From assembly GCA_000092065.1 (NCBI GenBank), contig CP000586.1: a DNA stretch of 64,000 bases; one strand, 5' to 3'. Source of the stretch: Ostreococcus lucimarinus (Eukaryota). Within the stretch, counting starts at the first letter, position 1; every line of letters starts with the position of its first letter. The translations under genes and the position numbers were made by a program. Under the pieces are notes generated by a model that did no database searches, was not told the origin of the DNA, and saw only the letters and a list, made by a program, of their open reading frames with translations. This document shows positions 9,676 through 61,295 of this stretch, piece after piece.

Positions 9676-9810
9676 CCGACCTTTTTAGCGCATCCGCAGT
9701 CGTCGCGACGGCGAGTCGCCCTCGCACCGGCGGCGCCGCGATTTAGCGATTTAAACCCGTCTCCAGCTGTCGTCGATCCTCTGTCCCCGCACACGCGCGC
9801 GCGAGCCGTC

Positions 9811-37328: not shown

Positions 37329-38081
37329 GACTCCGCGAGTCGTTTAATGGCGCTCGCGGGACGCGCCACAGATTTGGCTTTGGACTTCATTAGTCAGCCT
37401 GATGCCTTGGGTGCGACGGCGGAGGAGGTCAAAACTCTACAACACGACGATCTCATGGACGACGCCGAGGATGTTGACGACGACGCATCACTCGATCTCG
37501 CGCCCAAGGCTCAAATCATCACGACAGCGTGCTGGCTGACGGTGAAGGAAACGAGCCTACTCACGGGTGAAATCATAGCTTCGTCCACGGATGTATTTTC
37601 GTTCGATGCGATCAAATCGACGGGCGAGCGCTTGATGAAAGTGTTGTTCGCCGTAAAACACACCGGTGCTCTCGAGAAAACACGCATCGGTATGACTGCA
37701 GTTTGTTCACGCTTGATGCGATCGGACGACGCTGCTATGAAAGCGTTACCGCAGCGTTGGCTTGAAGACCTTCTTGATCAACTCAATCGCCCTGGTCAAG
37801 GCATTCGTGATCGCGTTCGACGTTCGGCGGGCTTACCGTACGCGTTCATGTCCATCCTTCTCGCCGAACCAAAAGGACAACCGAGACTGGCGCTTGACGG
37901 CGCGCTCCCTCGCTTGCTCGATATTGCATCTGGTGTTGTGAGCTCGGACATTCCCCGAGTGCATGCCTTCAACGTTATTCGTGTCATTTTCGCCGATCGA
38001 GATTTGACGATGGACACCACACCGTACGCCGCGCGAGGTGTGCAGGTGTGCATCGACGCTTTCTCTTCGCCAACTTGGGAG
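37329..38081 (+). CDS. THADA: THADA homolog, exon 3 (contains DUF2428 core)
   Basis: Acceptor …TTCTACTTCTATTCGCAG| is preceded by CTCAC/CTGAAC motifs. The exon encodes …GIRDRVRRSAGLPYAFMSILLAEPKG…, the RRSAGLP signature of THADA/Trm732, followed by …AFSSPTWE. It ends before a GTACGT donor at 38082, in phase 0. Confidence 0.7.
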
Positions 38082-38324
38082 GTACGTCCTCTATTGTCAC
38101 GCGCATTCGTTCTCGCTTTCTCGCCGCGCCACGCTGGAGGTATCGTTGCCTGTGCTTTAGCCTTGCGATTGGGCGCATGGCTTGTTCCCCAGCAACATTC
38201 AAGGAGTTCGAACAAAGAGCGCCCGCGTGCTCCAGCGGGCGTTTGGAAACTCGAACTCAACATTCGCTTATCGATGTTTGCTGATCAAACTTTTCGACTG
38301 ACTTTTGCCTCGACGATGCTATAG
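38082..38324 (+). other. predicted intron 3 of THADA homolog (GT-AG, 243 bp)
   Basis: GTACGT…CTGAC…ATAG, phase 0. It removes an in-frame stop and restores the conserved W-x3-N-x2-T-L-x-F-x3-L motif across the junction. Confidence 0.6.
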
Positions 38325-40490
38325 ATTCAAAACGCCGCGACACTGGCTTTTGCGTCGCTCTTGACCAAAGTGTGTGGTTACATGAACACCGTGACGCGCG
38401 CGCGCCATTTCACCGCTGACGGTCGTCACGAGGTGAAATTCGTCGAGTTTTTCCAAAGGTTCCCAACACTCATGACGTATTTGGGCGCCGAACTCGAAAA
38501 GGCAACGAGCCTGTCGTGTTTGGAGACGTCACTCGACGTCCATCCGAGCTTGTATCCAATACTAGCTCTACTCTCTCGATTGAGACCGAGCTTGGACAAA
38601 GACAAGAGCGCGTACACCGATGGTAAATGTGGCGACGACTTCTTCGTTCCGCTCGTGCGATGCATGTCGGGTAGATATCTCGCCGTGCGCACCGCCGCGG
38701 CGCGCGCTATGGTGCCCATTCTACCGTCCACGCGTTTGTGCGAGTACATCGACAAGATATTCACCTTCGAGCTCGTCGATAAAGTAAACCTCAACGCCAT
38801 TCACGGAGCGTTGCTGTGTTTCCTCGAAGTCATCAACGAAGTCCGACGGTCAGCGTTCTCTGATGACGTGTGCTGGGCGGCATTCTCCGCCGACGCGTCC
38901 CGGCGCTTAGTCGCATTCGCCGAGTGTGCCGTCGGAGCGCCGTGTCCGATGATTTCTGCGACATGGCTGAGATGTGCTGAAGCCATTGTCGCGATTGAAA
39001 ACTCAAAGCGCAAGTGCGCGCGCTCAAATTGCGCGTGCCGAACAACGGGGGATGAAAACGCGATCGGTGAAATGTTGCGAATGATTTGGCAGTGTGCCGC
39101 ACCAGTACTATCGGCAAACGCGGAAGGTCATCCAGGGGCATCTGAGTGGCATAGAACAGCGGCAGGAGCGCGAGTACGACTCACATTAGGATTCGATTCT
39201 TGGCTCGTGCCGCTGAATGATGGCCTTTGCGCGAATTTGGACACGGGCGACGCCTTGACGGCGTTGCTCGATACTATCAGTCAAGACTTGCCGTATGAAT
39301 ACCGCGCTGAGGCGTACAAAACCATGTTCAAAACACCCATTACGAAAGATACGAAAGTTTTGAGCGATAAGTTGCGTCATTTCGCCGCGGAAAATCTCGC
39401 GACAGAGTCGCGACACACGTGCGCACGTCGCGCGCTTCAGTGCATCGATTTGTGGACGGCAAGCAGCGATGCGAATGTCTCGTCGACCGTTTTTACCGCC
39501 GTCGAAAGCATTACATTTTCGAGCATAAACGAGCGCGTGCGATCGGAAGGCATGCGATGTCTTGCGGTGCTGTACAAGCGTCGCATTGCCCAACAAAACG
39601 GTTCGTTGAATATTGACGATTTCAAGTCGTTGGACAAGTTTACGCGTGCTTTGTCCATTGGATCTGCACCTGCGCAGTCCGCGGAGACTCGTCGCGCCGC
39701 TGTCGACGCACTCGCTCGAGGGGATCTGTTGCTATACCTCAATCTTGAGAACGTTAAACGACAGGAGTCGAGTCACGACTTTCCGGCACAAGTGGCGTTG
39801 TCGACATGGAAATGCGCGTTGACGCTCGTCGAAGACGAGGATGTTGAAATCCGCGCGAAGGCATCCATCGCCATCTCTCGCGCAGTGGCCCCGACGGTAC
39901 CTAGCGCTCATAGTGAAGAAAGTCTTTGCGACGCTTTCGCACACATGCACTCCAACTTTGCCGGCCTCAGAGAATTCGATGATTACTGCGTCCAACTCGC
40001 TCGCGGTTTGGCGCACGACGAGGCTAGCTTTGCGAGTGTCATTTCCAACGCCACGAGTGTTCGTCGGCTCTTCGATAAGGAAGCAGATAATATACACGCC
40101 GAACCTCTGTTGTTGGCGCAGATCGCTGCGACTCACGCTTCGCAGACGCTCGATGTTGAACGCGCGAGGGAGGGTCTCAGAGACGTCACCGAGCGAATCG
40201 AATGCATGTTGCGCGCGCTGCGAGCGTCTCCCGAAGACGTGTGGGTGGGCGGCATCGCGGGGCACGAGGCCTGTTTCTTACCAATCAGCAACGCGATTCT
40301 CGGTGCGAGCGTGTTTGCAAAAGCGCTTGAGCGCCAAAACCTTCCCAGTGGTGAATCGTTCCGCGAGACGATGCGCTCGGCGAGCGCGGCGATACCTCAG
40401 CTGCGATTATTCGTAAACGGCGGACTCGACATGTACGACCACGTGTATCTCATGAAGCATCGCTTGTGGCACCTCGGCGCAATCTCCTAA
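38325..40490 (+). CDS. THADA: THADA homolog, exon 4 (C-terminal HEAT region)
   Basis: After acceptor …GCTATAG|, reading gives IQNAATLAFASLLTKVCGYMNTVTRARHFTADGRHEVKFVEFFQRFPTLMTYL…. This aligns, from memory, with human …VRNSSTLLFSALITRIFGVK…NRMTGREFFSRFPELYPFLLKQLE. TAA is at 40488-40490. The four exons sum to 5811 nt, about 1936 aa; human THADA is 1953 aa. Confidence 0.7.
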   Translation: MQNAATLAFASLLTKVCGYMNTVTRARHFTADGRHEVKFVEFFQRFPTLMTYLGAELEKATSLSCLETSLDVHPSLYPILALLSRLRPSLDKDKSAYTDGKCGDDFFVPLVRCMSGRYLAVRTAAARAMVPILPSTRLCEYIDKIFTFELVDKVNLNAIHGALLCFLEVINEVRRSAFSDDVCWAAFSADASRRLVAFAECAVGAPCPMISATWLRCAEAIVAIENSKRKCARSNCACRTTGDENAIGEMLRMIWQCAAPVLSANAEGHPGASEWHRTAAGARVRLTLGFDSWLVPLNDGLCANLDTGDALTALLDTISQDLPYEYRAEAYKTMFKTPITKDTKVLSDKLRHFAAENLATESRHTCARRALQCIDLWTASSDANVSSTVFTAVESITFSSINERVRSEGMRCLAVLYKRRIAQQNGSLNIDDFKSLDKFTRALSIGSAPAQSAETRRAAVDALARGDLLLYLNLENVKRQESSHDFPAQVALSTWKCALTLVEDEDVEIRAKASIAISRAVAPTVPSAHSEESLCDAFAHMHSNFAGLREFDDYCVQLARGLAHDEASFASVISNATSVRRLFDKEADNIHAEPLLLAQIAATHASQTLDVERAREGLRDVTERIECMLRALRASPEDVWVGGIAGHEACFLPISNAILGASVFAKALERQNLPSGESFRETMRSASAAIPQLRLFVNGGLDMYDHVYLMKHRLWHLGAIS

Positions 40491-46628: not shown

Positions 46629-49600
46629 TCACGCGTCGATGTTTAAGACGCACGCGACGCCGCGTAAGATCCACGCGCTCGCGTGCTCGCTCGAGGCCAA
46701 GTCGGCTTGGAAGACGAGACCGCGACCCATGGCGTCGCGACGACTTTGAGTGAAGTACACGGGCGCTTTGAAAGCGTTCGTTGTCGATGAGGAGGAGGAA
46801 GAAGAGGGCATCGTGGTGCGTTCTATCGGGACGAGACGCAGGATGGGGAGCTCGCGCGCCAAGCCGCGGTCGCTTGGATGCGCCAGGACGCGGCGTTCGG
46901 CGTCCCAAATCGCGCCTTCGAGAAATAAACCCGAGATGTAACAGCCTATCTCGGGTTTGGCGTCGATTTCATCCGCGGAAACGTACGGGGTGACTTCCGT
47001 ATACATCGTGCTCGCGTCTAAAGGCCAACCACGAGAGCGACACGCGGTTTGAATGAGTGCCGCGATGTACGTTTCCGGGCAGTGTAAACCGCTGAGCCAG
47101 ATGACTTTTGGTTCGCCGTCGACGGCCCACGACTTGTACTGCTTCTCCCGCGTCTTGTACCACGTCATCCAAGATTGTACGTCTTTGTCTGTCGGTGGCG
47201 CGACACTTTTCCACTCCTCCGGTAAGCGCCCGCGCGAGAGTGAATCCGCGACGGCGTCGAGTTCTCGCGACATGCCGATTTCCCCACTCAGCGCCTTGAC
47301 GAGCTCTCGCAACGAGTGTCGAAGCACCAGCTTTAACGCGTTGTGACGCTCAATCTCCTGGAAGAGTACCACGGTCGTCGGCGATGGAACTTCATCTCCG
47401 CGCTGACGCTGGAGTTTTATCAAGTCAAACTCGAAATCTTCGTTCGTGACGACGTTTAAGATTTCGTTGACGATGGCGAGCAAGGCGCCGTTTCCATCGC
47501 TCGAGCCAGCGCTCTCGTCGTTCGACGAAGCCGAAATGGAGAGTTTACTCTGGAGCGATAAGACGTTAGACCATAACGCTTTCGCTGCTCGTGTAGAGTG
47601 TGCGACGTCTGCGTTGGCGTGAAGCCCGAGTACTTCAGGTGTCTGCGCGTCTGGAAGTTCATCGATGACGCGCGATTGCTCGTCGTACGAAGATTCCGGC
47701 GGCGGCAACTCATAACGAACTCGAGCTTCTTCGTCGGCGTAAAACATGAACTTGTGAAAGCCATCAAATAAGAAATCGCCAAAGTACTCGTCCAGATACG
47801 CGCTCAAGATACGTCGATCGTAATGATCGCTCACGCGTCCACCGTACATGGCCTCACCTATGAGATATTTCAACGCCGCCCACGGAATCATTCTCGAGCC
47901 GCCGCCGCCGGTGTTCACGGCGGCAACTTTGTTACAATAAGTCTTGATCAAACTGAACGAAATTCGAAAATCGGTTTCGTTGAAATCATACGCAACGTTC
48001 CATCCGAGCTTACCGTACTTTCGTCGCTCTTGCACGGCAGCGTGGAAGAAGGCCAGCACGTACGCTAAAGATCTAAAGAAAGGGTTCGCGCAACTCCCCA
48101 AGACGTCTTCGGACAATCTCGCGTACGACGCCTTCATGTTCATCTTGAGCCCGTCGGGGGGTTCTGTGACAACTTTGAGACTTTTTTGCAGAATACCGAT
48201 CGGGAACGTTTTGATCGGGTCGGTGGTGAGCCACAAACGGAAGTCTTTGTGCGGGTTCGCCAATCCGTCGACGACTTTTTCGAGCGCCGGCAGCCATTTG
48301 GGGAGAAGATGACAGTTTTGCAACATGAGCCACAAACCTCGCGAGGCGCACGTAAGAATAAGTTCCTCGGCTTTAGGTCCCATGCCTTGCCCAAGGGCCA
48401 TGAACTTCAGTTTGCCTCCTGCCTTGAATCCCATCGTTTCTCCCAACGCAAAAATATCAAACGCCGGATCTGCGCCAGGGGAGAGAATGAACACCACAGG
48501 TGTCTGCGCGGAAGACAATTTAAATATGCTTTCGTAGTCTGAAATCGGAGGCGTTACGTATCTTGAACCCATGGTTTCAGTGATGTAGTTCGACACCGCC
48601 ACCGTGACTCGATCTAATCGAGCGCAACGCAACAAGCATAGGCGCTCAAAACTGGACAGCGACGCCGAGTAACCATCTGGAAGCGCTACGGATTCGGGTT
48701 GTTCGCAGTCGTACCATGCGCGCCACGCATCGGCGTTGGACGTGATTCGATCGACGATTCCGTTTAGTGTTGCGCACTTGTCGTCATTAGCCGCGATGTG
48801 CTCGTCTAAATGCATTAAATCTTGCCAACCACGTTCGGACCACCATGGAAGCGGTTGCGAATCCCCGGAGGCGGCGTCAAGCGTGACGTTGCCCTTGAGG
48901 AAGAATCGTAGGAGGTTGCCATTCAATCGTCCATCACCGTCTTCGATTCTCGTAGTCATTTGAAACGAAAGCGCGAGTTTATCGCGCTTGAACAAACCGA
49001 GACATGCAAATTTGTACACGTCGTACGTCAACCTATCCACAAGATCACTCAAGCGCTCGTCCAGTTGATCGCGCACGGGCGTGACATGAAGCGTGTTGCA
49101 GAACACATCCAAAAAGCTCGAAAGTGAGTACTCGTACATCGCGTTGAGATTAGAGAGCGCTGAAATGACGAAGAAGAGTATCGCGCCGCGCTTTGCTACG
49201 GGAGAGTAGCACGACTGTGCCTTGTTTAACTCTTTCGCCGAACGCGCCGCCGCCACGAGCTTTTCAGAAATCTCTGTAGACTTTGTCTTCGCGCTCTCGA
49301 GTGTTTCGATGAGCTCCACGTTATCAACGATTTCACCCTGTGCGGTGGACAACTCATAAAGCAACGTGTCTTCGAGTTTCTTCAACAGTGCTCGATTCGC
49401 GACGGTTTCCTTGACGAGTTTTTCTCGCTCTGTTTCAAGATCTGGGCGCTCTTGCTTCACCGTGACATTCAAAAGTTGCTCTTGGAGCCCGAGCTCAGTG
49501 ACAGAGTAGTTGATTATAATCGTTTTACCCGTCACATCTGGATCGTAATGGGGATTTGGAAGTTTCGTCGTCATGTACAGGCGGAAGTTGTCGTCCCACT

Positions 49601-52600
49601 CAACTTCAGAATCGCCAAGCTTGATCATCTTCGCTCCGTTTGGAGCGTAGTAGAAACTCTTCTTCAGCACCGGGTCCAAAACGGGATCAATGTACTCGCC
49701 CACGTTTTCTATCAAGAATGGTAAACCATATTCAATGGCGAGCTCGAGTTGTTTCAAAAAGTCTGCGTCGGTCTGACGTTTAATCTTACCTTCGAGCTGC
49801 GCGCCCTCGCGAGATTTGATCCACTTTACCGCTTGCATCTGCGGATCGATACACAGCGGGAATCGCTCGGCGCGCATGGTGAGTATACCGTTTTGTACGC
49901 TAAGCTCATCACCTGGCAACCCTTCGGCGAGCCAAGAATTCATTTCGTTGTCATCTGTGAGTAACGCTTGGAGTCTGAATGGTTGACTCAACGGTATGCC
50001 GAGCTCCAGCAAATTCTTCTCAAGATGATCGTGAACGAATTGTTTACGAAACTCGTACGTAAACGTTCCAGCGTACGACAAGAACGCGGAAGTGATCAAA
50101 CAATCGCCAACAAGTCGCTCTTTACGGGAATTCAGTTCTTGCATCTCATTCGTCCATCTGACCTTTTCGCTCGACAGTCCCGAGATGAGTCGTTCGGCGG
50201 CGGCGAGACGGTTCGCCATTAGCTCGGCACTTTCCTTCAAGTCTTGCTGACGCGCGCTCTTCTCTTCGAACTGCGTGCTGAGTTGCTTTAGCTCGATCTG
50301 TAAGCTCTTTAACTCAGACTTCGTTTCAACCAATTCGCGTTCTTTAATCTTCAACGTCTTCTCCGCGTTTGCGACGGCGGCGCGCTTTGGATTCACCATG
50401 CGAGCAACTTTGTTGTAATTAATCATAGCAAACACCCATTTCAGCAGACCGGCACCAGCAGTCGAAATCTTCATCACTTCATCGGGCTTGAATTTTGAGT
50501 CTTTTGTGTACTCGCGAATGGCTTTCATCTGTTTTTCTTTGATGCCATCCTTGTCAAACTCGACGAGAGATCTTAAGAAATTTGTATCTGCCATCATGCC
50601 TTTCGCTCCAGACCACGAGACGTTCGGCAGTCCTTTGAGAATCATCACACATTCACATACTCGCTGAACCGCGATGTTTGGCTTAGAAAACGATCGGATT
50701 TCGGTAATCTCGTCCTTTTTCAGATTATTCAACGCCGCGGCGGCTTCTTCGAGAGCAGGGATTGCCGCCTCTAAGTCTGCCTCAGCTTCCGTCTTTTCCT
50801 TCGCGATACGCGCTGAATCATTGATGAGATCTTCTTCTTTACTCGTTGCGTTAGCTGCTTTAGTTTCGACTTCCGCCGTGCGCTTCGTGATGCGATCTAG
50901 TAAAGCATCACACTCCTTCGCTTGCTGCGTGACGACGATTTGCGCGTCGTTGAGCTTCGTCCGCATTGCGTCCACTTCGGTGCTCGCCTGTATTAATTTG
51001 TCGAGACCACCACGCAAACGTTTGATTGAAGTTTCAATTGACGCGCGCTGCGTCTTAAGCATTGCTTCATAGGCGGCGATAAAGTCCAAATAATGCTTCG
51101 GAGTGACGTAGTTGTGTCTCTTCAGCTGTGATTTGAACTTTTCGTTGAGAGCAATCGCCGAGCAGTGCGTGTGCACGACGTGCACGTTAATCTTCTCCGC
51201 GAACTGTTCTGGCAAATCTACGTTTATGAGTAATGAAGTGCTTACTTCGAGCAATGCTTCTTTCGGCCATTCTGTGAACCAGTCGATAACAGTGTTGTTC
51301 ACCAATCCGGGGAAGTTTCTGCAACGGTGACGCAACGTATCGCCGACGGGAGACATGGCGAGGACGATGTGCAAGTTCTTTCGGCAACGCGAAATAAAGT
51401 ATCGCCAACCTTCATCGCGCGTGACAGAAATTTTATTCGCGTGCAAATCGTCACGAATCGCATTCACCAAAGCGTCCTTCTCTTCATCGGCGAACAACGC
51501 GGGAACCGTACCCGTGGTGAGCATGTTGTTGATTAACTCCAAAAATCCTTCCTCAACGACGTGGTTGTCGGTGAAAAGAAACATCGTGGGATGATTTTGC
51601 ACCCCAAGTACGTTGTATAGCTTTTTCAAGTCCTCCCTGAACGACTCATCGTTGTAGCCACGCGTCAGCGTGATCTCAAACACTTCACAACCCGCCATAT
51701 CAGCGGCGAGATGCGCGAGCGATTGTTTGCCGCTTCCGCCGACGCCGACGAGAAGCGCATGTCCATTTTCTGTTCGAAGTACGCGATGAATACGCGTGAT
51801 ATGCTCTAGCGCATGATCAAACAAGACTAGTTTAGTCGGTGCTGAGCCATCGCTGAGTTTGGCGTTACGACGATTGATGAGGTCCTCGAACCAAGGTTTG
51901 ATGGTGGCGTAATCGCCAACGTCAGCGTACGAGCGTAGTCGACTAGAAGGATCGACTTCATCTGACGATCCACTTCCATCGATTTGTTTTAGTGGACTGT
52001 AGTCGGCGAATAAAATCGGGTTGGATGTGATCGGCGAAGTGTCATCAGTACACCCATGGCGAATAAGTGACGATACTTTTCCCAGTACGAAGTCGCGATC
52101 TTTGTCCGCAATCAACCTATCGTGAAACACGCGAATCGATTCGTTTCGCCACAGGCGCAAGAAATCTGGGGTGTTTCGAACTTTTGCTGACGTCGCTTTC
52201 GACATGCCCTCGAACAAGCGACTTAAGTCGCGAAGGTTAAAGATGTAATGAAATCGGCTCGGCGTCGGCAAAAGTTTGGAGACGACGCTCTTATATAAAT
52301 CCAAAGTCATATCTACGACGAGTTCGTGCGTCCCGGGCTTGAGAGCCAGCGTTTTTGACGTATTCGTTATGATTGAACCATAAATTACCTTAAGATTGGT
52401 CTCATCCGGGGTCTGCATTTCGAATACTTGGAACATTGAAACAAAGCGTGGGTCCACAACGCTTCGTGCGCCGCCGGGATGCCCCATGGCTGCGATGTAC
52501 TGAATATCCTTCATCTGCAGCCAATTCAAATCACGTCCGCGGTCGTACGTGCCTCCACGGCCAATCATGAGTTTTAGCAACGCGATTGGTTGTTGCGTAC

Positions 52601-55600
52601 CGTACTTATCGACGGCAGGCATGTTCAAATCGTCCACGAAGCACAATAAACGCTTGCCGACGGGTGGACCCACCGTGTCCTTCGTGCGCTTGTCCAGCAC
52701 ATCCATGAGCGAGCTATGCACATCATTTGCGGTCGTACGAGAACTGAAATTCATCGTCACCGTGTTCGTCTTTCCATCTTGCAATCTCTTTTGTAAATAG
52801 TTCTTCACGACAACAGTTTTACTTGTTCCGCTATCGCCGGTGAGAAGCGTATGCGCGTCACAAGAGCACATGAGGTCGATTAACCAGTTTGTGCGAACCG
52901 TGTGCGCGGTTGAAACCAAGAGCGACGAAAATGGAGTGTTTGGTGGCACCTCGAGTGGAGTGGTGAGACTTTTCCATTCGTACCACGTGTTACGAGTGAT
53001 ATCAAAGCCATAATCATACAACGTCGCGCCCGCCGGCAAAACGTTGCCGAAATTGGCGAGTCGCCTAACGAAGTCATCGAATCTCGCACGATCAGAGTTT
53101 CCAGACGTTTCAACGATAGTCGCACCGAATGACCACACTAAGCAGAAGATAAAAGCCGATTCGATCGCCCGAACGTAGTCATCATCCTGGCTCGTCTCCA
53201 CGTCGCTGGTGGAGTCATCGAGAGCTTCCAAAAAGCTTTGCATCAAAATGGTGAACTGTTTTACCACAGATATCACCGGTCGATCGATCGACGTTCGCAC
53301 GATTGAAATCATTCGCCCGTCAAGTTCTGTGCCGTCGTAGCAAAATGCCGTCATTCTATCCATGTACTTGTCAAACATACGCAATAACGTTTCGCGGTGC
53401 TTGGCGCCGACACCTTCGGACCAAGTCTTGAGGAACGGTTTGAAGCCGAGATTCTTGGGGTCTACGTACACCATTCCGCAACGACTTACAGTGGCTGGAG
53501 AAGCATACTTTAAGTCGGCCACCTCAAACAAAAGCTTGCAATGGTCTTGAAGACGAATCCGCTCACCGTTTGGCAACGTCAGTAGGCGATTATCGTCCAT
53601 TACGCTATTCATATTTTCGACCCAAACTGCGTCGACATCGCCATCAAATACTATATACTTGAAGTCGTTCTCACGTCCAATAGCCATCGGTTTGTTGCAC
53701 TCGCGAAAAATATTCGAAAGAAGACCATCAGTCCAATCTCGCGTATCCGGATCCAATTCGCCATAGAGTTCGGCCACCGTTTGCGCTTTTGGATTTAGAG
53801 TGTACAACTTCGTATTTCGACCCATCGTAGTTTGCGCGCGAGCGATTGTTTCAAGCATGACAGACTTACCTCCACCAGTCTCGCCGACTAACATCGTCGT
53901 ATGCCTCGTCAACATAGTCTCATACAACTGAATAATTTTGTCCACTTGCTCGCCCGGGCGCGTCAACACTTGATAGCCATGCTTGGCCAAGTCTTGTTCA
54001 ATGACATCGTTGAGAGTAGGATATCGAACACGCGGGCAGTCTAGTCCAGGGAATAAATCGGCGATCAGACCCAAAAAGAGTGGGACATCGTCGAATACAA
54101 ACTTTGGCAGATTCATATCCCTCAACGCTCGCATGAGAACTACCTCTTCGGCGAGCTCGGGCGCATCGCGCTTCAGCGCGCCAGCCATGACGAGCACCGA
54201 TTTAAGCGCGCGTAAACCGAAATCATAATGCGATCTTTTGCTAAGTTGCTCTTTAGCCAGGCGGTACAGTATCGTCATCTTCTTCGCGAGAGCTTTCGCC
54301 GCGTTGAAACCTTCGCTAAAGAGCATAATTTCACAAATTTGCTCCAAATCCGGCACAATCATAGTAACGGGGCGGAACAGAGCCTTCAAGTTATCCGGAA
54401 GTTCGGTTCTACCCGCATACCCAGGATTCATAGTGATGAAAATACCGGTGCGTGCGTCGCAATTGATTTCTTTTCCTTCAAACTGGAATCGTGACAAATT
54501 GTGCTTCAACGCTTCTTGAATCTGCTTAATTTGCGATGAGACGACGGACAGCACCTCAGCCTCAATGCGATTGAACTCATCGAAGCATCCCCACGCGCCG
54601 CACTGCACAAGACCACTAAAAATGGCCCCCATAGCTTTGTAGTCTAATCCTTCACCACAATTGAACACGACGCAAAGCAAAGCCATGGACTTTGCCAAAT
54701 CCTTTGTGGTCTCCGTCTTTCCTGTGCCCGCGGGCCCGCTCGGGGCACCGCCGAGTCTATACGTCAGCGCCGTAGTGAGCGTGATATAGCAGCGGTCAGT
54801 TAGACCAGTGATTACGAGACGCCCATTCAAACCCATGTACTCGTAACCATATCTGAATTCACCACTGCACTGATTGATGACGATGTCGTCGCGTGCCTTG
54901 TCCCACTTGAAACGAAGTTGCGACTCCCACGCAAAATCTGACTCATCTAAAACAGAATCTCTAACGAAAGAGTCGATGATGTCTCGCGCGTGGACGTCAA
55001 TGATGATCAACGTATTCACTTTTTTTCGTTCGCACGAGCTAAGCTCGCCTCGAACCATTTTCGTGAGAACCTCGAGTTGCGACGAGAGCTTGTCGCTGTA
55101 ATTCCGCATGGCGAGTTTATCGCCCGAGCGAATCGATTTGAATACGTTTTGCACTTCCCAGGTCCACCAAATTTGCGACCCCACAAGGGTGATCATTCCA
55201 AGCTGTTCTTTTATCCATTCTTCACGATCGCACGTCATGTATCGCGCGACTCCATACTTGCACAACGCGCGTAAGGTTGCCCGCATCTCTTCTTCGACGG
55301 CAGACATCCAATCCTCAACAGGGCCTTGAATTTTTACGGGCGACTTGAACTTGAACGATTCCCCCTCTGCGGACGTAATCCCGACTACGCACGCTTTATC
55401 AGACGTAAACGTCAGCTTTGCACAGTTGTCAAACAGCTTCAACATGTGCTCCTGAATTAGTGTCGGATCGGCAGCACCTAAAATTGAAAGCAGCTCCTCG
55501 TCGGAGATGAAGAAGAAGCGCGGAAACGCGTCCCGCTTTGTGTCTAAATATTGACTCAAACTCTTTTGACATATCTCCAGCTCCTCGCGAAGGTTCTTCA

Positions 55601-58600
55601 GCGTTTCTAAGCGCCCTTCGGATTTGCACATGTCTAAAACGAATTTAGTCTTCACAGTTTCCGCCATGAGTTTGCGTATTTCAGTATCGATGTTGTCAAA
55701 ACGATCAGCTTCCTCAGGAAGCTGCGTGCGTATGTCGTCTGAGCCACCAAAAATGCTGAGTAAGTACATCCAACGTTGCTGCGTGTCGATCCACACCTGT
55801 AGAACATTGGCCACTAATGCGAGCGTTCCTTCCCACTCGCGCACGCTTTCGATGAGCGGATCAGCATACCGACTTGCCGACATACTCTGCAAAGTTAATC
55901 CCGTGTCTTCGAGCGCGAGCGTAATTTCTTCCACGGCGCAAAGCACGTACGTGGGCTGCGCGTGCTTCTTGCTTTTGCCTTTGGAGTAAGGTCTAAGATC
56001 AAAGCGCATTTCTCGCCATGATCGATCGATCGCGATTAAGTCGTTTTCAATTTTTAGCTCCTTCTCTGCCGCCGCTGTAATGTCCATGATTTTTTGCGCG
56101 TGCGCGTGAAGTTTCATCTCACTCAAGTGTCGCATCGAGAGTTGCGCGCTCTTTACGGTTTCGTCGTCAAAATCAACAGTCTGAAACACAGACTTCCAGT
56201 GACGAGGTCGAATTGCATCAACTTTCAAGCTTTCGATGAGGTTCAAATCAGTTTCGATGTCGTCAATTTCTTCCCGGACAGCCGCAAAGAGGCGATGCGA
56301 ATGAAGACTCTTCGGAAGCGTCGAGAGCTGCGTTCGACCAAAAGCCACGACAGAGGCGTACACGTTCGCGACGACCAACTCTGGAACGAGCGTTTCGTAA
56401 AATTGTCGCAACTGACCTCGATACGCTCGTTGACATTCGTATATCTTTGCCATGGAATCCAAATCAGTTTTTGCTTGCTCAAGCGATTCAAACGAGCATT
56501 GATCGACGCCAAAGACGCGCTCACTGTCTCTAATATCGGCCAATGCATCCAATCTACCGAGAATTTCTTCTTTAAACGTCTCAAAACTTTCGAAGCCGGC
56601 GTCTAAATTTAGCAAAAGATCGGCGCATGTCGGGCCTTCAGCCTTGAGCCTGTTCGCGAAGCCATCACATTCCTCCTGAAATAGGCGCGCCGTTCTTTTC
56701 AGTTCCGTCTTGAAGTCTGAAATCTTCAACGTCATGCCTTCGTAAACACGTTCGGCGCGCGCGCGGAGCTTTTCAAAAGATGGAATCGTCGCCGATGCGC
56801 GCTCAAGATCAGAGGGATCGTGTTCTATCCTGTATTTCATTCTCACGGCAAATCGATCGTTCACTCCACTTGCCGTCACTTCGGTCGCGGTGTTTTCGCG
56901 CACATCTCTGACCGTCTTTACCAGATTCTTCATGGTGAGGAAATCACGTGCGTCGACTGAAAATGTATTCTCGCATGCCGCCATGTGCTCGTAAAGGTCA
57001 TTCAGGAGTTTGACGTCAGCATGATACGTCGCGGCACCGATGTCTTTGATCCACTGAGCGCTCTTGTTCTTAATGAGGGTGGTCAATTTGTCGGCTCGCA
57101 CCCGCACAGCGCCGATGTCCACGCTCGCGTCCTCATCCATGGCTTTCATGACGTCCTCGTATCTAAGTAAAGCGCGTTGAAGACTCAATGCGTTCATATT
57201 TTCCGTATGTTTTTCGATCACGAGATCTTTGTCGTCTTTCCACACGGCTTGGTATCGCTTCCACACTTCCATCTGGCGGCGGATTTCACCCGCAAAGAGA
57301 TGTGAGACGTTGCTCAAAGAGCTCATCGCGTCGCACACGCGTTCGTTCGCTGAAACCTCATTCCCAAAGTTGAACGCATGAGTCACCGTGTTTGATGCGT
57401 CATCGTCGAGTTCTATGGCAAGTAAAGTGGAGAGGCTCAAATCTGAGCTCGAAGTTGCTCGCCGCGTGGGCATCCCCACACAAGTGCCGTCCATCCATCG
57501 GCCGAGCACTGAGGCGGCATTTGCAATGGATTTCGCCGCGTATGCAATGGATCGAATGAGCTCTTTCAACGGCGGTTCGCACACGATTTCTCCCGCTCGC
57601 AGAGTTATATTTAGTTTAAACAGAGTGATGTTCGAAGGGAGCGACTTGTCAAAATACTCCCTTAATCGAAGAATGTTCCGCTCCGCAGCGAGAACGAGAG
57701 CGTCGTAAATCTCGCTCTCCCAATAGGCATAGTATTCCCTCAAATGCACAACCTTCCCGGTGCGTGTGCCGAAAACGATTTCTTCGACACAAAGCAAAAG
57801 ATTCATGATGTTGACGTATTCCTCTCGCACTACCGAAGCCGTTTTGCTGCATTGCGCGGCGAGTTGAGCGAACAGTTCGCCGCTTTCGCGCTCAACGCCG
57901 GATTTTGACAGTGCTTCACAATCGACGAATGATGAGACCGAGATCTTTTTCACTGACCGCTCTAGATCGCCAGCGTGCGTTCGCACGCCATCTATAACAG
58001 TTGTAAAGTCCTTAAGTTCCGTTGTGTACGCCGCGACAAAGTCAGGAATACCCAAAGAGTTCCAATTATACGTCTTCAGTCCTCGATGAAGAGACGCGCT
58101 ATTCAGTACCGCCACGCGCGTGCGGAAGAGTTGACGCTCCAGTGGTGACAGTGAATCGAGTACGTCGCGACGATGAGCGAGCATTTTACTAAGCGTGCAT
58201 CTATAAGCGCTGTATTTTTCGCTTTGCAATGCCACGCCACGCGCCTCTGCTGGGATGTCGAAGCCAAGTCGTTCCAGATTTCGAGTCTCCTTGATTAGGC
58301 TTGTGAGCGCTGGGTGGAAATTCATAATCACGTCGTCCCCACTCTCATTCTTCGATAATATAGGTTGCATAAGGCATGATGTCAAAGTAGAGTCTATTTC
58401 TTCTTTCCAAGTTAACACGCGCTGCTTCTCGTAGTTCATGATAAGTTTTGCCAAGGCTAAAAACTTTGCGTTCACCTCTTGCGCCGCCGGCGTGTCGCGA
58501 ATACCTCGTTGATCCTCGACGCACGCGTTGAACGATTTCATGGTAACTCGCAGCTTGTAAAACAGTGATCTTACCCAATGAATCGATCCACTTACGGTTG

Positions 58601-60569
58601 GTTGGTCGCGATTGAGCGGTGGTGAGCGGCGGTGACTGTTGAAGATGTGCCGGGTCGAATCGATCTCGCGAGAAAATTGCTCAAGGACGTCTTGCATCTT
58701 GCCAAGAATTTGACTGTTTAGTGTCATACGCGTCGATCCAGACAGTACTTCGTCGTCGTCCGCGTGCATTGTACTTTTCAGCTCTTGAACGAGCGCGAAC
58801 GCTCCCGCACTACTGCGCAACCTCTTGAAGCATGCGTCGATGAAGTTACACAGCGCGCGTTCGATGCGCGTCTTTTCCATCACGAAAGACTTGTGCATCG
58901 CCTTCCAACTCGCTGCGTTCGCCGAGTCGAAGATGTCTAGCTGCGACATTTCAATTGTAAGGCAAAGCGCATCCACTCGCGCAGAGATTTCGTCCACGCC
59001 GTCGGCATCGAGAGTCACTGCTTTGAGACGCGGACTGAGAAACGTGCGGAAATCACTCACTACGATAACCATTTCGCTGAATTCCGCACAAACGTCCGCA
59101 ACGTAATCCGACTTCATGAACAAGCGTTCGCGATCAAACTCCCACCTTGAATCCCTATTTGAACGTTCGATTTCTTCTCGCGCGTTCAAATATTCGCTCT
59201 TCCAAGATTCCATAATCGACTTTGAGAGTTGTACGTCGCGCAACGTGGCGTGCGCCCCAAGTCCGCTCGACGCTTGGGCAAACAGTTCCTGGTAGTTTAC
59301 CGATTCGCGAACACGATGAATGAGCGCATCTGACAGGCGTTCTAATAGGGAACCCATTCGAGAGTCGTCACTGTAGTGGTGCGAAATTACCCAAACCATT
59401 CGAAGTGCGCGAAGCGTCGGCGCGATGGCGCGGAGCACGTCCGGCAACAGCGCCTCACTCAACACTTTGAAATGACTCTCGAGCGTGGACAAAAACTTGA
59501 TGTTGTCAGCACTCACGCTGTGTAAGTGTGTGATTTCTCCCAAGAGCGTTTTAAACGCCGACGCGACGTTGCGCACGCGAGACGAAAATTCATCGACAGA
59601 AGCAGTGTGCTTCGCCGCAAATCGTTCCAGCACGTCCAACACAATGTCCATGCTCGGATCGGAGAGCTGCGTCACCAAACCTGACAAGTCGTTATGTCGC
59701 GCGCGCCACAGACGAATCTCCACTAGCGGTCCTTCGTTTGCCCCTGCACATTCTTCCGTGATCACGCTTTCGCTTTCGTTCCTCGTCTTCGCCGCCGACA
59801 TCACCGCGCACCACTCAACCGCCGCAGCTTCGAGCTGACGCACGAAAGCCTCGTCTTCACACGCCTTGGCGGGATCGATGTCGCAGAGTGCACGACCCGA
59901 CGCCCCGCCCGCCTTGACGACGCTTTTCAGTGACGCCTCTGGACTCTGAACTGGGGCGTTTACGCCTTGAATCCCATCCAAAAACTCCCGCACATGCTTC
60001 GCAAAGGATTGACTCTCCGTCGACGCACTCGACTCGAACGCGGATACGAATGAGCACTGTAAAGTCGCGTGAAGCTCGTCCATCGACGCCCCGTGCGGAA
60101 GGAAGCCGTACATCGCACTCCGCAAATCATCGAGTCCGATCGAATTTTCGTCGTTCACGCAGTCCGGACGCACGATGAACAACACAGGCTGTTTTGGATC
60201 GCACTCGCCGTCCGCGACGAGCTCGAGCCGAGGTCGCCGAGGCGAGTCTTCCCGCGCGCCTCCATCACTCTTGACGACGCCGGCGTTCGTCGAGTCCGCG
60301 AGCGCGTGCGAAGTGATGGAGGACAACGTGAGTCCATTCATCGTCTTCGCCCTCGCTTTCACCGTCGAAGTCGCGCGAAGCCGCAGCACGAGCACGTCCT
60401 CGCGTCCGCAATCGAGAAAGTCCAAGGTCTTTGCGCGCGAACCGTCACCGAACCCCACGACGTGTTCGTCGATGTCGGCGTCGACGCACGACGATGCGAG
60501 ACGAAGTATAAAGGCGACGCGCGCATCTGGTTCCTCGGCGCCATCCTCGCCGTCGTCTGCGCACGTCAT
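46629..60569 (-). CDS. dynein heavy chain, axonemal type (~4646 aa), apparently intronless
   Basis: A single 13.97-kb ORF. AAA1 is GPAGTGKTETTKDLAKSMALLCVVFNCGEGLDYKAMGAIFSGLVQCGAWGCFDEFNRIE; the TETTKDLAK form is typical of axonemal rather than cytoplasmic-1 DHC. AAA2–4 P-loops (GETGGGKS…, GDSGTSKT…, GVGGSGKQ…), the coiled-coil stalk, AAA5/6 and the C-terminal domain follow. The listed start is TTG at 60602; the first ATG is at 60567-60569. TGA is at 46629-46631. Confidence 0.9.
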   Translation of the reverse strand: MTCADDGEDGAEEPDARVAFILRLASSCVDADIDEHVVGFGDGSRAKTLDFLDCGREDVLVLRLRATSTVKARAKTMNGLTLSSITSHALADSTNAGVVKSDGGAREDSPRRPRLELVADGECDPKQPVLFIVRPDCVNDENSIGLDDLRSAMYGFLPHGASMDELHATLQCSFVSAFESSASTESQSFAKHVREFLDGIQGVNAPVQSPEASLKSVVKAGGASGRALCDIDPAKACEDEAFVRQLEAAAVEWCAVMSAAKTRNESESVITEECAGANEGPLVEIRLWRARHNDLSGLVTQLSDPSMDIVLDVLERFAAKHTASVDEFSSRVRNVASAFKTLLGEITHLHSVSADNIKFLSTLESHFKVLSEALLPDVLRAIAPTLRALRMVWVISHHYSDDSRMGSLLERLSDALIHRVRESVNYQELFAQASSGLGAHATLRDVQLSKSIMESWKSEYLNAREEIERSNRDSRWEFDRERLFMKSDYVADVCAEFSEMVIVVSDFRTFLSPRLKAVTLDADGVDEISARVDALCLTIEMSQLDIFDSANAASWKAMHKSFVMEKTRIERALCNFIDACFKRLRSSAGAFALVQELKSTMHADDDEVLSGSTRMTLNSQILGKMQDVLEQFSREIDSTRHIFNSHRRSPPLNRDQPTVSGSIHWVRSLFYKLRVTMKSFNACVEDQRGIRDTPAAQEVNAKFLALAKLIMNYEKQRVLTWKEEIDSTLTSCLMQPILSKNESGDDVIMNFHPALTSLIKETRNLERLGFDIPAEARGVALQSEKYSAYRCTLSKMLAHRRDVLDSLSPLERQLFRTRVAVLNSASLHRGLKTYNWNSLGIPDFVAAYTTELKDFTTVIDGVRTHAGDLERSVKKISVSSFVDCEALSKSGVERESGELFAQLAAQCSKTASVVREEYVNIMNLLLCVEEIVFGTRTGKVVHLREYYAYWESEIYDALVLAAERNILRLREYFDKSLPSNITLFKLNITLRAGEIVCEPPLKELIRSIAYAAKSIANAASVLGRWMDGTCVGMPTRRATSSSDLSLSTLLAIELDDDASNTVTHAFNFGNEVSANERVCDAMSSLSNVSHLFAGEIRRQMEVWKRYQAVWKDDKDLVIEKHTENMNALSLQRALLRYEDVMKAMDEDASVDIGAVRVRADKLTTLIKNKSAQWIKDIGAATYHADVKLLNDLYEHMAACENTFSVDARDFLTMKNLVKTVRDVRENTATEVTASGVNDRFAVRMKYRIEHDPSDLERASATIPSFEKLRARAERVYEGMTLKISDFKTELKRTARLFQEECDGFANRLKAEGPTCADLLLNLDAGFESFETFKEEILGRLDALADIRDSERVFGVDQCSFESLEQAKTDLDSMAKIYECQRAYRGQLRQFYETLVPELVVANVYASVVAFGRTQLSTLPKSLHSHRLFAAVREEIDDIETDLNLIESLKVDAIRPRHWKSVFQTVDFDDETVKSAQLSMRHLSEMKLHAHAQKIMDITAAAEKELKIENDLIAIDRSWREMRFDLRPYSKGKSKKHAQPTYVLCAVEEITLALEDTGLTLQSMSASRYADPLIESVREWEGTLALVANVLQVWIDTQQRWMYLLSIFGGSDDIRTQLPEEADRFDNIDTEIRKLMAETVKTKFVLDMCKSEGRLETLKNLREELEICQKSLSQYLDTKRDAFPRFFFISDEELLSILGAADPTLIQEHMLKLFDNCAKLTFTSDKACVVGITSAEGESFKFKSPVKIQGPVEDWMSAVEEEMRATLRALCKYGVARYMTCDREEWIKEQLGMITLVGSQIWWTWEVQNVFKSIRSGDKLAMRNYSDKLSSQLEVLTKMVRGELSSCERKKVNTLIIIDVHARDIIDSFVRDSVLDESDFAWESQLRFKWDKARDDIVINQCSGEFRYGYEYMGLNGRLVITGLTDRCYITLTTALTYRLGGAPSGPAGTGKTETTKDLAKSMALLCVVFNCGEGLDYKAMGAIFSGLVQCGAWGCFDEFNRIEAEVLSVVSSQIKQIQEALKHNLSRFQFEGKEINCDARTGIFITMNPGYAGRTELPDNLKALFRPVTMIVPDLEQICEIMLFSEGFNAAKALAKKMTILYRLAKEQLSKRSHYDFGLRALKSVLVMAGALKRDAPELAEEVVLMRALRDMNLPKFVFDDVPLFLGLIADLFPGLDCPRVRYPTLNDVIEQDLAKHGYQVLTRPGEQVDKIIQLYETMLTRHTTMLVGETGGGKSVMLETIARAQTTMGRNTKLYTLNPKAQTVAELYGELDPDTRDWTDGLLSNIFRECNKPMAIGRENDFKYIVFDGDVDAVWVENMNSVMDDNRLLTLPNGERIRLQDHCKLLFEVADLKYASPATVSRCGMVYVDPKNLGFKPFLKTWSEGVGAKHRETLLRMFDKYMDRMTAFCYDGTELDGRMISIVRTSIDRPVISVVKQFTILMQSFLEALDDSTSDVETSQDDDYVRAIESAFIFCLVWSFGATIVETSGNSDRARFDDFVRRLANFGNVLPAGATLYDYGFDITRNTWYEWKSLTTPLEVPPNTPFSSLLVSTAHTVRTNWLIDLMCSCDAHTLLTGDSGTSKTVVVKNYLQKRLQDGKTNTVTMNFSSRTTANDVHSSLMDVLDKRTKDTVGPPVGKRLLCFVDDLNMPAVDKYGTQQPIALLKLMIGRGGTYDRGRDLNWLQMKDIQYIAAMGHPGGARSVVDPRFVSMFQVFEMQTPDETNLKVIYGSIITNTSKTLALKPGTHELVVDMTLDLYKSVVSKLLPTPSRFHYIFNLRDLSRLFEGMSKATSAKVRNTPDFLRLWRNESIRVFHDRLIADKDRDFVLGKVSSLIRHGCTDDTSPITSNPILFADYSPLKQIDGSGSSDEVDPSSRLRSYADVGDYATIKPWFEDLINRRNAKLSDGSAPTKLVLFDHALEHITRIHRVLRTENGHALLVGVGGSGKQSLAHLAADMAGCEVFEITLTRGYNDESFREDLKKLYNVLGVQNHPTMFLFTDNHVVEEGFLELINNMLTTGTVPALFADEEKDALVNAIRDDLHANKISVTRDEGWRYFISRCRKNLHIVLAMSPVGDTLRHRCRNFPGLVNNTVIDWFTEWPKEALLEVSTSLLINVDLPEQFAEKINVHVVHTHCSAIALNEKFKSQLKRHNYVTPKHYLDFIAAYEAMLKTQRASIETSIKRLRGGLDKLIQASTEVDAMRTKLNDAQIVVTQQAKECDALLDRITKRTAEVETKAANATSKEEDLINDSARIAKEKTEAEADLEAAIPALEEAAAALNNLKKDEITEIRSFSKPNIAVQRVCECVMILKGLPNVSWSGAKGMMADTNFLRSLVEFDKDGIKEKQMKAIREYTKDSKFKPDEVMKISTAGAGLLKWVFAMINYNKVARMVNPKRAAVANAEKTLKIKERELVETKSELKSLQIELKQLSTQFEEKSARQQDLKESAELMANRLAAAERLISGLSSEKVRWTNEMQELNSRKERLVGDCLITSAFLSYAGTFTYEFRKQFVHDHLEKNLLELGIPLSQPFRLQALLTDDNEMNSWLAEGLPGDELSVQNGILTMRAERFPLCIDPQMQAVKWIKSREGAQLEGKIKRQTDADFLKQLELAIEYGLPFLIENVGEYIDPVLDPVLKKSFYYAPNGAKMIKLGDSEVEWDDNFRLYMTTKLPNPHYDPDVTGKTIIINYSVTELGLQEQLLNVTVKQERPDLETEREKLVKETVANRALLKKLEDTLLYELSTAQGEIVDNVELIETLESAKTKSTEISEKLVAAARSAKELNKAQSCYSPVAKRGAILFFVISALSNLNAMYEYSLSSFLDVFCNTLHVTPVRDQLDERLSDLVDRLTYDVYKFACLGLFKRDKLALSFQMTTRIEDGDGRLNGNLLRFFLKGNVTLDAASGDSQPLPWWSERGWQDLMHLDEHIAANDDKCATLNGIVDRITSNADAWRAWYDCEQPESVALPDGYSASLSSFERLCLLRCARLDRVTVAVSNYITETMGSRYVTPPISDYESIFKLSSAQTPVVFILSPGADPAFDIFALGETMGFKAGGKLKFMALGQGMGPKAEELILTCASRGLWLMLQNCHLLPKWLPALEKVVDGLANPHKDFRLWLTTDPIKTFPIGILQKSLKVVTEPPDGLKMNMKASYARLSEDVLGSCANPFFRSLAYVLAFFHAAVQERRKYGKLGWNVAYDFNETDFRISFSLIKTYCNKVAAVNTGGGGSRMIPWAALKYLIGEAMYGGRVSDHYDRRILSAYLDEYFGDFLFDGFHKFMFYADEEARVRYELPPPESSYDEQSRVIDELPDAQTPEVLGLHANADVAHSTRAAKALWSNVLSLQSKLSISASSNDESAGSSDGNGALLAIVNEILNVVTNEDFEFDLIKLQRQRGDEVPSPTTVVLFQEIERHNALKLVLRHSLRELVKALSGEIGMSRELDAVADSLSRGRLPEEWKSVAPPTDKDVQSWMTWYKTREKQYKSWAVDGEPKVIWLSGLHCPETYIAALIQTACRSRGWPLDASTMYTEVTPYVSADEIDAKPEIGCYISGLFLEGAIWDAERRVLAHPSDRGLARELPILRLVPIERTTMPSSSSSSSTTNAFKAPVYFTQSRRDAMGRGLVFQADLASSEHASAWILRGVACVLNIDA

Positions 60570-60692
60570 TCCGCGTCGAAGAATGCGCGACGACGCACGC
60601 AAAGACCTTGGACTTTGCTTTGACTGAGAAAAAAGACGATTCGGCTAAAAATAAAACACGCACTGCATTCAGCGACGTGCGGCGCGCGGAAG
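60570..60692. promoter_or_regulatory. putative bidirectional promoter/5'UTR region shared by the dynein heavy chain (-) and RIIa-domain protein (+) genes
   Basis: Only ~123 bp separate the two divergent ATGs. The region is AT-richer than its flanks (…gactgagaaaaaagacgattcggctaaaaataaaacacgcactgcattcag…). Confidence 0.4.
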
Positions 60693-61295
60693 ATGATTGA
60701 AGAATTGGAAGCGTACGCGAAGGAGAGCAAAGTGGATGATTTATTCCGGGATATGATGACTGGGTGTTTCAAGAAACGACCGAGCGCGCCGGTGACGTAC
60801 ATCTTGGAGTACCTCGCGAGCGAGTACCCAGAGGAGAGTTTGACGCACGCGCGCGCGTTCGTAGACTTGAAGGATGGGATCACGAGCGCGAACGTGGCGG
60901 TGGACGAAGACGAAGACGGCGCGCACGATGTTGTCGTTGAAGATATCGATGAAAAACATGAGATCGTCGAGGCGCCGCTGACGTCACCCAAGGACGTCCC
61001 CGCGAAGGCGACCGACGTCGTCGCGGAGGCGATCGAGGACGTGGCCGTTGAGGGCGAGATATTACCGGACGAAGCACAACATCTCATGGCGCCAGAGGAG
61101 GGCGCACACGTCGACGTCGTCGTCGATAAGCCCGATGAGCGCGTCGAGGAGTGCGAAAGTGTCGCCGAAGAGCCCGTCGACGCGGACGCAGGTGAGGAAG
61201 AGCAAAAAGAAGAACCACCCGTCGTGACGCCCGCGAGTGAGGAAGCTGTCGAATCGATTACGAATGCGGAGAACGTGGAGGATGCACCAAACTAA
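60693..61295 (+). CDS. RIIa/DPY-30-like dimerisation-docking domain protein with acidic tail (possible flagellar/axonemal protein)
   Basis: The N-terminus reads MIEELEAYAKESKVDDLFRDMMTGCFKKRPSAPVTYILEYLASEYPE, which fits the RIIa/Dpy-30 helix-turn-helix motif (…RP..P…FL..YL). The remainder is D/E-rich. ATG is at 60693 and TAA at 61293-61295. It is divergently paired with the dynein gene. Confidence 0.55.
   Translation: MIEELEAYAKESKVDDLFRDMMTGCFKKRPSAPVTYILEYLASEYPEESLTHARAFVDLKDGITSANVAVDEDEDGAHDVVVEDIDEKHEIVEAPLTSPKDVPAKATDVVAEAIEDVAVEGEILPDEAQHLMAPEEGAHVDVVVDKPDERVEECESVAEEPVDADAGEEEQKEEPPVVTPASEEAVESITNAENVEDAPN

Follow-up and report, generated by a model that had tools for sequence, protein, structure and literature searches.

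An I1-alpha dynein heavy chain gene and its docking-domain neighbor in Ostreococcus lucimarinus, an alga without a flagellum

The 64,000-nucleotide stretch of Ostreococcus lucimarinus DNA analyzed here (contig CP000586.1 of assembly GCA_000092065.1; called the window below, at its full length) carries a single-exon gene at 46629-60569 on the minus strand that, to judge from its sequence, clearly encodes the alpha heavy chain of the two-headed inner-arm dynein I1/f (Chlamydomonas DHC1, human DNAH10, IAD-1alpha). A small gene for a protein with a docking domain lies head to head with it at 60693-61295 on the plus strand. An earlier reading of the same sequence (the original prediction) had taken the two for flagellar components under a shared promoter in a flagellated organism. 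We think it probable instead that this is an intact, constrained I1-alpha motor gene that has been repurposed as a non-axonemal, stage-restricted motor, that its neighbor is a passenger, and that its low GC content is a general feature.

The dynein reading frame runs unbroken through 46629-60602 (minus strand) and measures 13,974 nt when counted from a TTG. Its first ATG is at 60567-60569 and its TGA stop at 46629-46631, giving a coding sequence (CDS) of 13,941 nt and 4646 amino acids (aa); methionine followed by an acidic stretch also opens the dynein N-termini of three other lineages. Pfam recognizes, in order, DHC_N1, DHC_N2, AAA_6, AAA_5, AAA_7, AAA_8, MT stalk, AAA_9, Dynein_heavy, AAA_lid_11 and Dynein_C, each covered over essentially its full length. 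Residues 137-4645 form one collinear alignment with residues 198-4625 of 8glv_Cn, the 4625-aa Chlamydomonas chain in the structure of the 96-nm axonemal repeat, and therefore no intron is required. The product is a complete dynein heavy chain, with tail, linker, six AAA+ modules, stalk and C-terminal domain, and the original prediction of a complete, single-exon gene holds. The exact 4646-aa translation occurs only in metagenome-derived sources (Logan, ENA); because it is absent from NCBI/UniRef-sourced sequences, which hold four of the neighboring proteins, the deposited gene model of the dynein probably differs from the plain ATG-to-stop reading frame.

Parts of the motor can be placed as follows, each on the minus strand. 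The tail (DHC_N1, PF08385, profile positions 1-562 of 562; aa 243-844) lies at 58038-59843, the linker (DHC_N2, PF08393; aa 1363-1771) at 55257-56483, and AAA1, the main ATPase site as delimited by Pfam and motifs (aa 1907-2236), at 53862-54851. The coiled-coil stalk with its microtubule-binding domain (PF12777, 2-337 of 344; aa 3184-3513) follows at 50031-51020 and the dynein C-terminal domain (PF18199, 2-309 of 309; aa 4327-4642) at 46644-47591. AAA1 has the Walker A sequence GPAGTGKT (54714-54737), the motif GPAGTGKTETTKDLAK at aa 1945, which is of the TETTKDLAK type as had been predicted, and the Walker B sequence DEFNR at aa 1997. Four P-loops had been predicted as well. All four positions are recognizable (AAA1, GPAGTGKT; AAA2, GETGGGKS; AAA3, GDSGTSKT, aa 2578-2585, 52815-52838; AAA4, GVGGSGKQS, aa 2942-2950, 51720-51746), but only those of AAA1 and AAA2 fit the strict pattern GxxxxGK[ST].

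Which heavy chain is this? The isoform had been left unassigned in the original prediction, and can now be named. The assignment comes from the separation of bit scores against sequences of solved structures (PDB), with the best 60 matches listed, rather than from a tree. The dynein scores 4655 bits against Chlamydomonas 8glv_Cn, 3920-3937 against mammalian DNAH10 and 3338-3417 against trypanosomatid IDAf-alpha. The next class, DNAH2/I1-beta, stands at about 2400 bits, and among the same 60 matches the outer-arm alpha, beta and gamma chains and the single-headed inner arms also reach at most 2400 bits. The tail alone gives the same class ranking as the whole protein. The AAA3 P-loop has the variant form GxSGT[AS]K[ST], with GDSGTSKT here, GESGTAKS in Chlamydomonas, GESGTSKT in human DNAH10 and GKSGTAKT in the trypanosome. 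It is the gap between 4655 and about 2400 bits, together with this shared variant, that points to the I1/f alpha chain. Cytoplasmic dynein 1 and intraflagellar transport (IFT) dynein 2 were considered and rejected, since all of the best 60 PDB matches listed are axonemal, with no DYNC1H1, DYNC2H1 or other cytoplasmic or IFT chain among them; the axonemal class originally proposed thus stands. The protein shares with Chlamydomonas DHC1 and human DNAH10 the domain order, the AAA1, AAA2 and AAA4 P-loops and the variant AAA3 form. Unlike Chlamydomonas DHC1, it comes from an organism without an axoneme, is encoded by a single exon, and has a first stretch of ~136 residues that does not align. It belongs to the family by sequence, and by location, which for I1/f is the A-tubule at the proximal end of the 96-nm axonemal repeat, it is probably not an 'inner arm'.

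The organism is not in doubt, as four flanking proteins match O. lucimarinus CCE9901 entries exactly (DDX1, ABO96626; a thiolase, ABO96863; the 200-aa product of the small gene, ABO96627; and a tRNA isopentenyltransferase). According to published descriptions, Ostreococcus lacks cilia, basal bodies and IFT (PMC6727741; PMC2239267). The inference of a flagellated source was wrong, because the dynein sits in an alga that has no flagellum. The central fact and the paradox it poses were already published in 2007, when Wickstead and Gull found O. lucimarinus and O. tauri to have 'apparently canonical' IAD-1alpha, IAD-1beta and IC138 and no further heavy chain, 'a most surprising result' (PMC2239267). 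The gene in the window is that very alpha chain (PMC2239267, PMC5100056). Kollmar (2016) found Ostreococcus to be the only group with just heterodimeric inner-arm dyneins left, that is, with nothing but two-headed inner-arm dynein and yet no axoneme (PMC5100056), and several intermediate chains (ICs) and the assembly factor WDR92 are retained as well (PMC6727741). Bathycoccus is reported to be without I1 beta. Two comparative papers state that non-flagellate Ostreococcus has no dynein heavy-chain ortholog (PMC5508029, PMC7455551); the window dynein contradicts them, as do the dynein surveys of 2007 and 2016. What is added here is modest: the isoform by score separation, figures for selection and rate, a docking-domain neighbor with possible ancestry in proteins like the regulatory subunit of protein kinase A (PKA-R-like), a conserved spacer element, and an account of the GC dip.

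Is the motor still under selection? The syntenic locus was compared with that of five further Ostreococcus-type lineages (L001, L004, L007, L008 and L009, making six with the window), the comparison covering the first ~3270 codons of the dynein. No stop codon interrupts these codons in any of the five. Between the window and the five lineages the proportion of synonymous differences (pS) is 0.75-0.81, which is saturated, and that of nonsynonymous differences (pN) is 0.17-0.27. Amino acid identity across lineages is 89-94% in AAA1 and 73-89% in AAA4, with 56-72% in the DHC_N1 tail and 34-53% in the distal tail. These figures show strong purifying selection on what would be a working motor.

The protein has changed faster in this lineage than in a relative. 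A GC-rich (65-69%) marine relative, probably Micromonas-like by its GC content, marine origin and synteny, has a dynein ortholog in the same synteny, on a 2.27-Mb contig and on a TARA scaffold. Compared over the same ~3000 residues, the relative outscores the window against Chlamydomonas (3876 vs 2754 bits), DNAH10 (3003 vs 2366) and the trypanosome (2478 vs 2018), and its identity to Chlamydomonas DHC1 is 49% in the tail and 76% in an AAA3 sample, as against 34% and 56% for the window dynein. In Tajima's relative-rate test, with Chlamydomonas DHC1 as the outgroup, the window lineage has 203 unique changes and the relative 68 over 907 sites of the tail (p 2e-16), and 42 and 7, respectively, over 171 sites of the AAA3 sample (p 6e-7). 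The O. lucimarinus dynein lineage therefore carries 3-6 times more lineage-specific substitutions than the GC-rich relative, as measured on the dynein only, without control genes. The notion that the acceleration is concentrated in the tail, first read from the bit scores, was withdrawn, the excess in the AAA3 sample being equal or stronger. In the relative (L012) the I1-alpha gene opens, at 9418-9739 on the minus strand, with a short first exon, called at 64 aa, and has at least one intron, because this exon is set ~130 bp apart from the rest. Close to the N-terminus of the window dynein, aa 16-30 (60480-60524, minus strand) carry a helix-like motif, [DE]ARVx[FWH][IL]xxLA, variants of which recur in every Ostreococcus-type lineage and, in L012, in the ortholog's separate first exon. 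Chlamydomonas DHC1 cannot be aligned over this region; the motif could be a dimerization or docking element.

How would such a motor be used? In the reading that we favor, the I1 complex would have gained a second, non-axonemal job in a flagellate ancestor, before the flagellum was lost, as Wickstead and Gull proposed. I1 dynein would now be a minus-end-directed microtubule motor outside the axoneme, with hydrolysis at AAA1 driving linker and stalk as in any dynein, and the 3-6-fold excess of substitutions would mark a remodeling of the protein. The motor would probably be used at an infrequent point of the life cycle, for instance during mating or meiosis, and not in vegetative cells. In vegetative cultures of O. 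tauri, the two dynein genes, ostta06g04460 (labeled DHC1) and ostta14g00070, are under repressive H3K27me3 alongside DMC1, PCH2 and SPO22 (bioRxiv 10.64898/2026.08.19.745701). Several points weigh against this interpretation. That preprint deals with O. tauri, and ostta06g04460 is taken as the ortholog by chromosome and name alone. Both a role outside the axoneme and a connection with sex or meiosis are inferred from gene content and the chromatin data of this one preprint. The acceleration may affect the whole genome and not the dynein in particular, and the flagellate status of the GC-rich relative is assumed. Finally, Nevers et al. place the ciliary gene content of Ostreococcus between those of ciliated and non-ciliated species (PMC5850483), which leaves some probability to a very reduced, cryptic axoneme.

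The small gene (60693-61295, plus strand) encodes a protein of 200 aa. It is a true coding gene, because its product is identical to ABO96627 (XP_001418334) and because differences between lineages fall mainly at third positions (in the first 62 codons, 19-25 at position 3 and 4-10 at positions 1 and 2). Lineages agree at 79-90% of the first 62 residues; the acidic remainder can barely be aligned and is predicted to be disordered. The N-terminal part (aa 1-62, 60693-60878, plus strand) is, as judged by profile search, a dimerization/docking (D/D) domain of the RIIa/Dpy-30 type. Pfam gave no match to the protein even at expectation values (E) up to 10, and the gathering scores of RIIa (PF02197) and Dpy-30 (PF05186) were not reached. 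Searched against the PDB, a profile of the N-terminal family found Chlamydomonas FAP385 of the radial-spoke neck (E 3.3e-5) and, more weakly, the PKA RI-alpha D/D domain (E 0.11), the AK7 C-terminus (0.26) and DPY30 (1.1). Against 1.84 billion representative proteins the same profile found nine close family members and then the N-termini of proteins labeled Dpy-30 by Pfam, at E 1e-9 to 1e-4. Those found at E 1e-9 to 1e-7 score 26.1, 29.6 and 24.1 bits for Dpy-30 (cut-off 22), and several of the Dpy-30-labeled proteins continue with a pair of cyclic-nucleotide-binding domains, arranged as in a PKA regulatory subunit. The RIIa/Dpy-30 docking motif recognized in the original prediction is thus supported at the superfamily level by the FAP385 match and by the Dpy-30-scoring relatives. 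AlphaFold2 monomer models show helices at residues 2-11, 16-28, 34-44 and 49-60 followed by disorder, with low pLDDT (53-61), and a Foldseek search from the low-confidence prediction against the PDB gave chance-level helical matches only.

The RIIa/Dpy-30 superfamily, which takes in the PKA RI-alpha D/D domain, the termini of AK7 and AK8 and DPY30, has a helix-turn-helix fold that dimerizes as an X-type four-helix bundle and binds an amphipathic helix. Two kinds of known protein resemble the docking domain of the small protein. FAP385 (70 aa; 7jtk_u) matches the N-terminal ~45 residues of the small protein, including the signature RPxxPVxxhhxxL. Unlike FAP385, the small protein has a 140-aa acidic tail, and as Ostreococcus has no radial spokes orthology is not implied. 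The docking domains of four PKA-R-like metagenomic proteins (P0146, P0149, P0153 and P0156) align to the small protein at E 1e-9 to 1e-7. These proteins share a second docking-like segment and an RRxSVSAEC inhibitor-type site with the ortholog of the GC-rich relative, the syntenic neighbor at L012 10001-10660 (plus strand), whose 219 aa include two docking-like segments and the inhibitor-type site RRHSVSAE. Unlike them, the Mamiellales proteins have no cyclic-nucleotide-binding domains: the L012 protein ends before any such domain, and so do those of L010, L013 and L015. The Ostreococcus protein has kept the first docking segment and lost both the second segment and the RRxS site.

Is the docking protein a true partner or regulator of the dynein, that is, a dimeric adaptor of PKA-R-like descent seated on an amphipathic helix? 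The two genes are linked head to head in every lineage examined (six of Ostreococcus type and at least three that are GC-rich), the first 62 aa are conserved while the tail is free to vary, and the succession of two docking segments (D/D1 and D/D2) and RRHSVSAE in the GC-rich ortholog is the N-terminal layout of the PKA-R-like proteins. PKA activity has, moreover, been implicated pharmacologically in the control of I1 dynein in Chlamydomonas. Against this, no I1 subunit is known to carry such a docking domain, and the Ostreococcus protein is without the second docking domain and the RRxS site. The entire block (docking-domain gene, IPT, PDCD2_C/TSR4, TPR, EF-hand and PALP) keeps one gene order across these loci, so that retention of the pair says nothing specific about a common function, and the synteny of the block accounts for the linkage just as well. 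A partnership of this kind is in our view unlikely. We would give only an outside chance to the fuller scenario, in which the protein would derive from a PKA-R-like module (two docking domains and an RRxS site) linked head to head to I1-alpha since the flagellate ancestor of Mamiellales, and would now act in Ostreococcus as a dimeric adaptor that anchors or regulates the repurposed, non-axonemal I1. One possible docking site for such an adaptor would be the conserved N-terminal helix of the heavy chain at aa 16-30.

A different alternative is that Ostreococcus has a cryptic and very reduced flagellum, in an unobserved motile or sensory stage such as a gamete, with an axoneme built in the cytoplasm without IFT and containing I1 only. 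Chlamydomonas mutants show that I1 alone is insufficient for beating, which counts against this idea. The axonemal contacts would be retained in such a structure, so that evolution 3-6 times faster than in the GC-rich relative is unexpected. The genome lacks genes for outer arms, single-headed inner arms, radial spokes, the central pair, IFT and basal bodies (PMC2239267, PMC5100056, PMC6727741, PMC7455551). In favor of a cryptic flagellum, Ostreococcus retains I1 alpha and I1 beta as a set with intermediate chains and WDR92 (PMC2239267, PMC6727741), and the O. tauri preprint has the dynein genes repressed in vegetative culture along with meiosis genes. The count of ancestral ciliary genes in Ostreococcus is intermediate (PMC5850483), and Prasinoderma, once thought to be non-flagellate, is predicted from its gene content to make flagellate cells (PMC7455551). 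Taking both sides together, we find a cryptic flagellum quite improbable.

The original prediction went further and saw two flagellar genes sharing a bidirectional promoter, in a flagellated organism where they would be co-induced at flagellar assembly. The spacer between the divergent start codons (60570-60692) is 123 bp, exactly as predicted, and spacers of ~0-480 bp between divergent genes are usual within the window. One element is conserved in all six Ostreococcus-type spacers, and only one: GCTAAAWWTA, present as a single copy in each, on either strand. In the window it reads GCTAAAAATA (60644-60653, plus strand), TATA-like and AT-rich, 40-49 nt upstream of the ATG of the small gene; in one lineage it is palindromic (GCTAAATTTAGC). 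GCTAAA is the sole 6-mer common to the six spacers, and none of 2000 shuffles had any shared 6-mer. The window holds two copies of GCTAAAWWTA against 0.08 expected, the second (GCTAAATTTA, 56604-56613, minus strand) lying inside the dynein CDS, where it is probably a chance occurrence. In five of the six lineages the element is 28-60 nt upstream of the ATG of the small gene; because this is the distance of a TATA box, we would most simply assign it to that gene as a TATA-like core element of its own. TTGAC (60620-60624, plus strand; TTGACT here and TTGACY in the six lineages) is on the same strand in all six spacers and is, weakly, a possible W-box-like site. In the GC-rich relative (L012) the ATG-to-ATG spacer is 261 bp, without GCTAAAWWTA and with TTGACC. 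A search of 60570-60692 for the X-box/RFX motif, as had been proposed, found no X-box; the single match in the window is inside another gene, and one match is below chance expectation.

The class of the heavy chain, the closeness of the neighbor's domain to radial-spoke FAP385, the retention of the pair and the conserved spacer element could all be cited in favor of a flagellar pair. O. lucimarinus, however, has no cilia, basal bodies, IFT or radial spokes, and none of the other axonemal heavy chains (PMC2239267, PMC5100056, PMC6727741, PMC7455551). The docking domain is no evidence of a ciliary role, because it is also present in non-ciliary proteins including PKA regulatory subunits. The pair is not special within its collinear block, short divergent spacers are normal here, and the conserved element stands where the small gene would have its own TATA box, so that a promoter co-regulating two flagellar components is not borne out. 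We consider a flagellar pair very unlikely; the simplest view of the small neighbor is that it is a passenger in a syntenic block, with a TATA-like promoter element of its own.

The dynein gene was also said to be less GC-rich than its neighbors, in the mid-50s as against the high-60s percent. The direction was right and the numbers were not: the GC content is 51.4% (59% at third codon positions, GC3) for the dynein, 58-62% (GC3 70-74%) for its immediate neighbors and ~59% for the whole window. Nor do the neighbors avoid AAA, TTT and ATT, as had been claimed, since these codons (0.46 of Lys, 0.45 of Phe and 0.39 of Ile codons in the dynein) are only moderately commoner in the dynein. Is the low GC a sign of foreign origin, or of a special low-GC region of the chromosome, as the difference between ~51% and 59% might suggest? 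The other two very long genes of the window, Hobbit/BLTP2-like (2326 aa; 13180-20160, plus strand) and THADA/Trm732-like (~2020 aa; 34010-40490, plus strand), have a GC3 of 0.61 and the same U-shaped profile. From start through interior to end, GC3 is 0.70, 0.53-0.61 and 0.70 in the dynein, 0.63, 0.56 and 0.70 in Hobbit, and 0.74, 0.53 and 0.72 in THADA. Because these two genes share the U-shape, the dip is not specific to the dynein; it is a general trait of the interiors of very long Ostreococcus genes. Over 21 genes, length and GC3 are negatively correlated (Spearman -0.45, p 0.04), and in all five other Ostreococcus-type lineages dynein GC3 falls from the 5' end (the 5' part being the part compared). 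In the GC-rich relative (L012) it is flat at 0.81-0.87, equal to that of its neighbors. These profiles would agree with a process that raises GC mainly close to the ends of genes. Foreign origin, or a special chromosomal region, is highly improbable, given that the same dip occurs in the Hobbit and THADA genes, that GC3 returns to the level of the neighbors at both ends of each of the long genes, and that the dynein is a vertically inherited ortholog in conserved synteny.

There is next to no chance that the gene is a decaying relic of a lost flagellum, as the accelerated substitution and low GC3 might suggest, because the 13.9-kb reading frame has no stop in six lineages (over the first ~3270 codons in five of them), synonymous sites are saturated while pN is 0.17-0.27, AAA1 is 89-94% identical, and all the catalytic motifs are intact.

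Elsewhere in the 64-kb window there are no genes for the I1 partners (I1-beta, IC140, IC138 or light chains). A WD40 gene at 32682-33869, examined as a possible WDR92 or intermediate chain, encodes a generic WD40 protein, and Rfam and tRNA scans of the window gave no matches. The THADA/Trm732-like gene consists of four same-strand reading frames (34010-36070, 36234-37154, 37347-38324 and 38382-40490, plus strand) with the Pfam order TPR_Trm732, DUF2428, TPR_Trm732_C; the gaps between them (163, 192 and 57 bp) are presumably introns, in contrast to the intronless 14-kb dynein.

Cytoplasmic dynein 1 was lost from green plants and algae and so is unavailable for cytoplasmic work. Ostreococcus is a natural experiment on whether an 'axonemal' dynein can serve as a cytoplasmic motor, a question that has stood since 2007. 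The present analysis narrows it: the motor is under strong constraint, the protein has been remodeled, a conserved docking-domain gene lies next to it, and its base composition is irrelevant. A single axonemal gene is poor ground for inferring a flagellum. Since O. tauri supports gene targeting, the function of the motor can be tested there. If the docking protein did prove to be an adaptor of I1, it would be the first case of an accessory subunit peculiar to an 'axonemal' dynein that does its work outside the axoneme.

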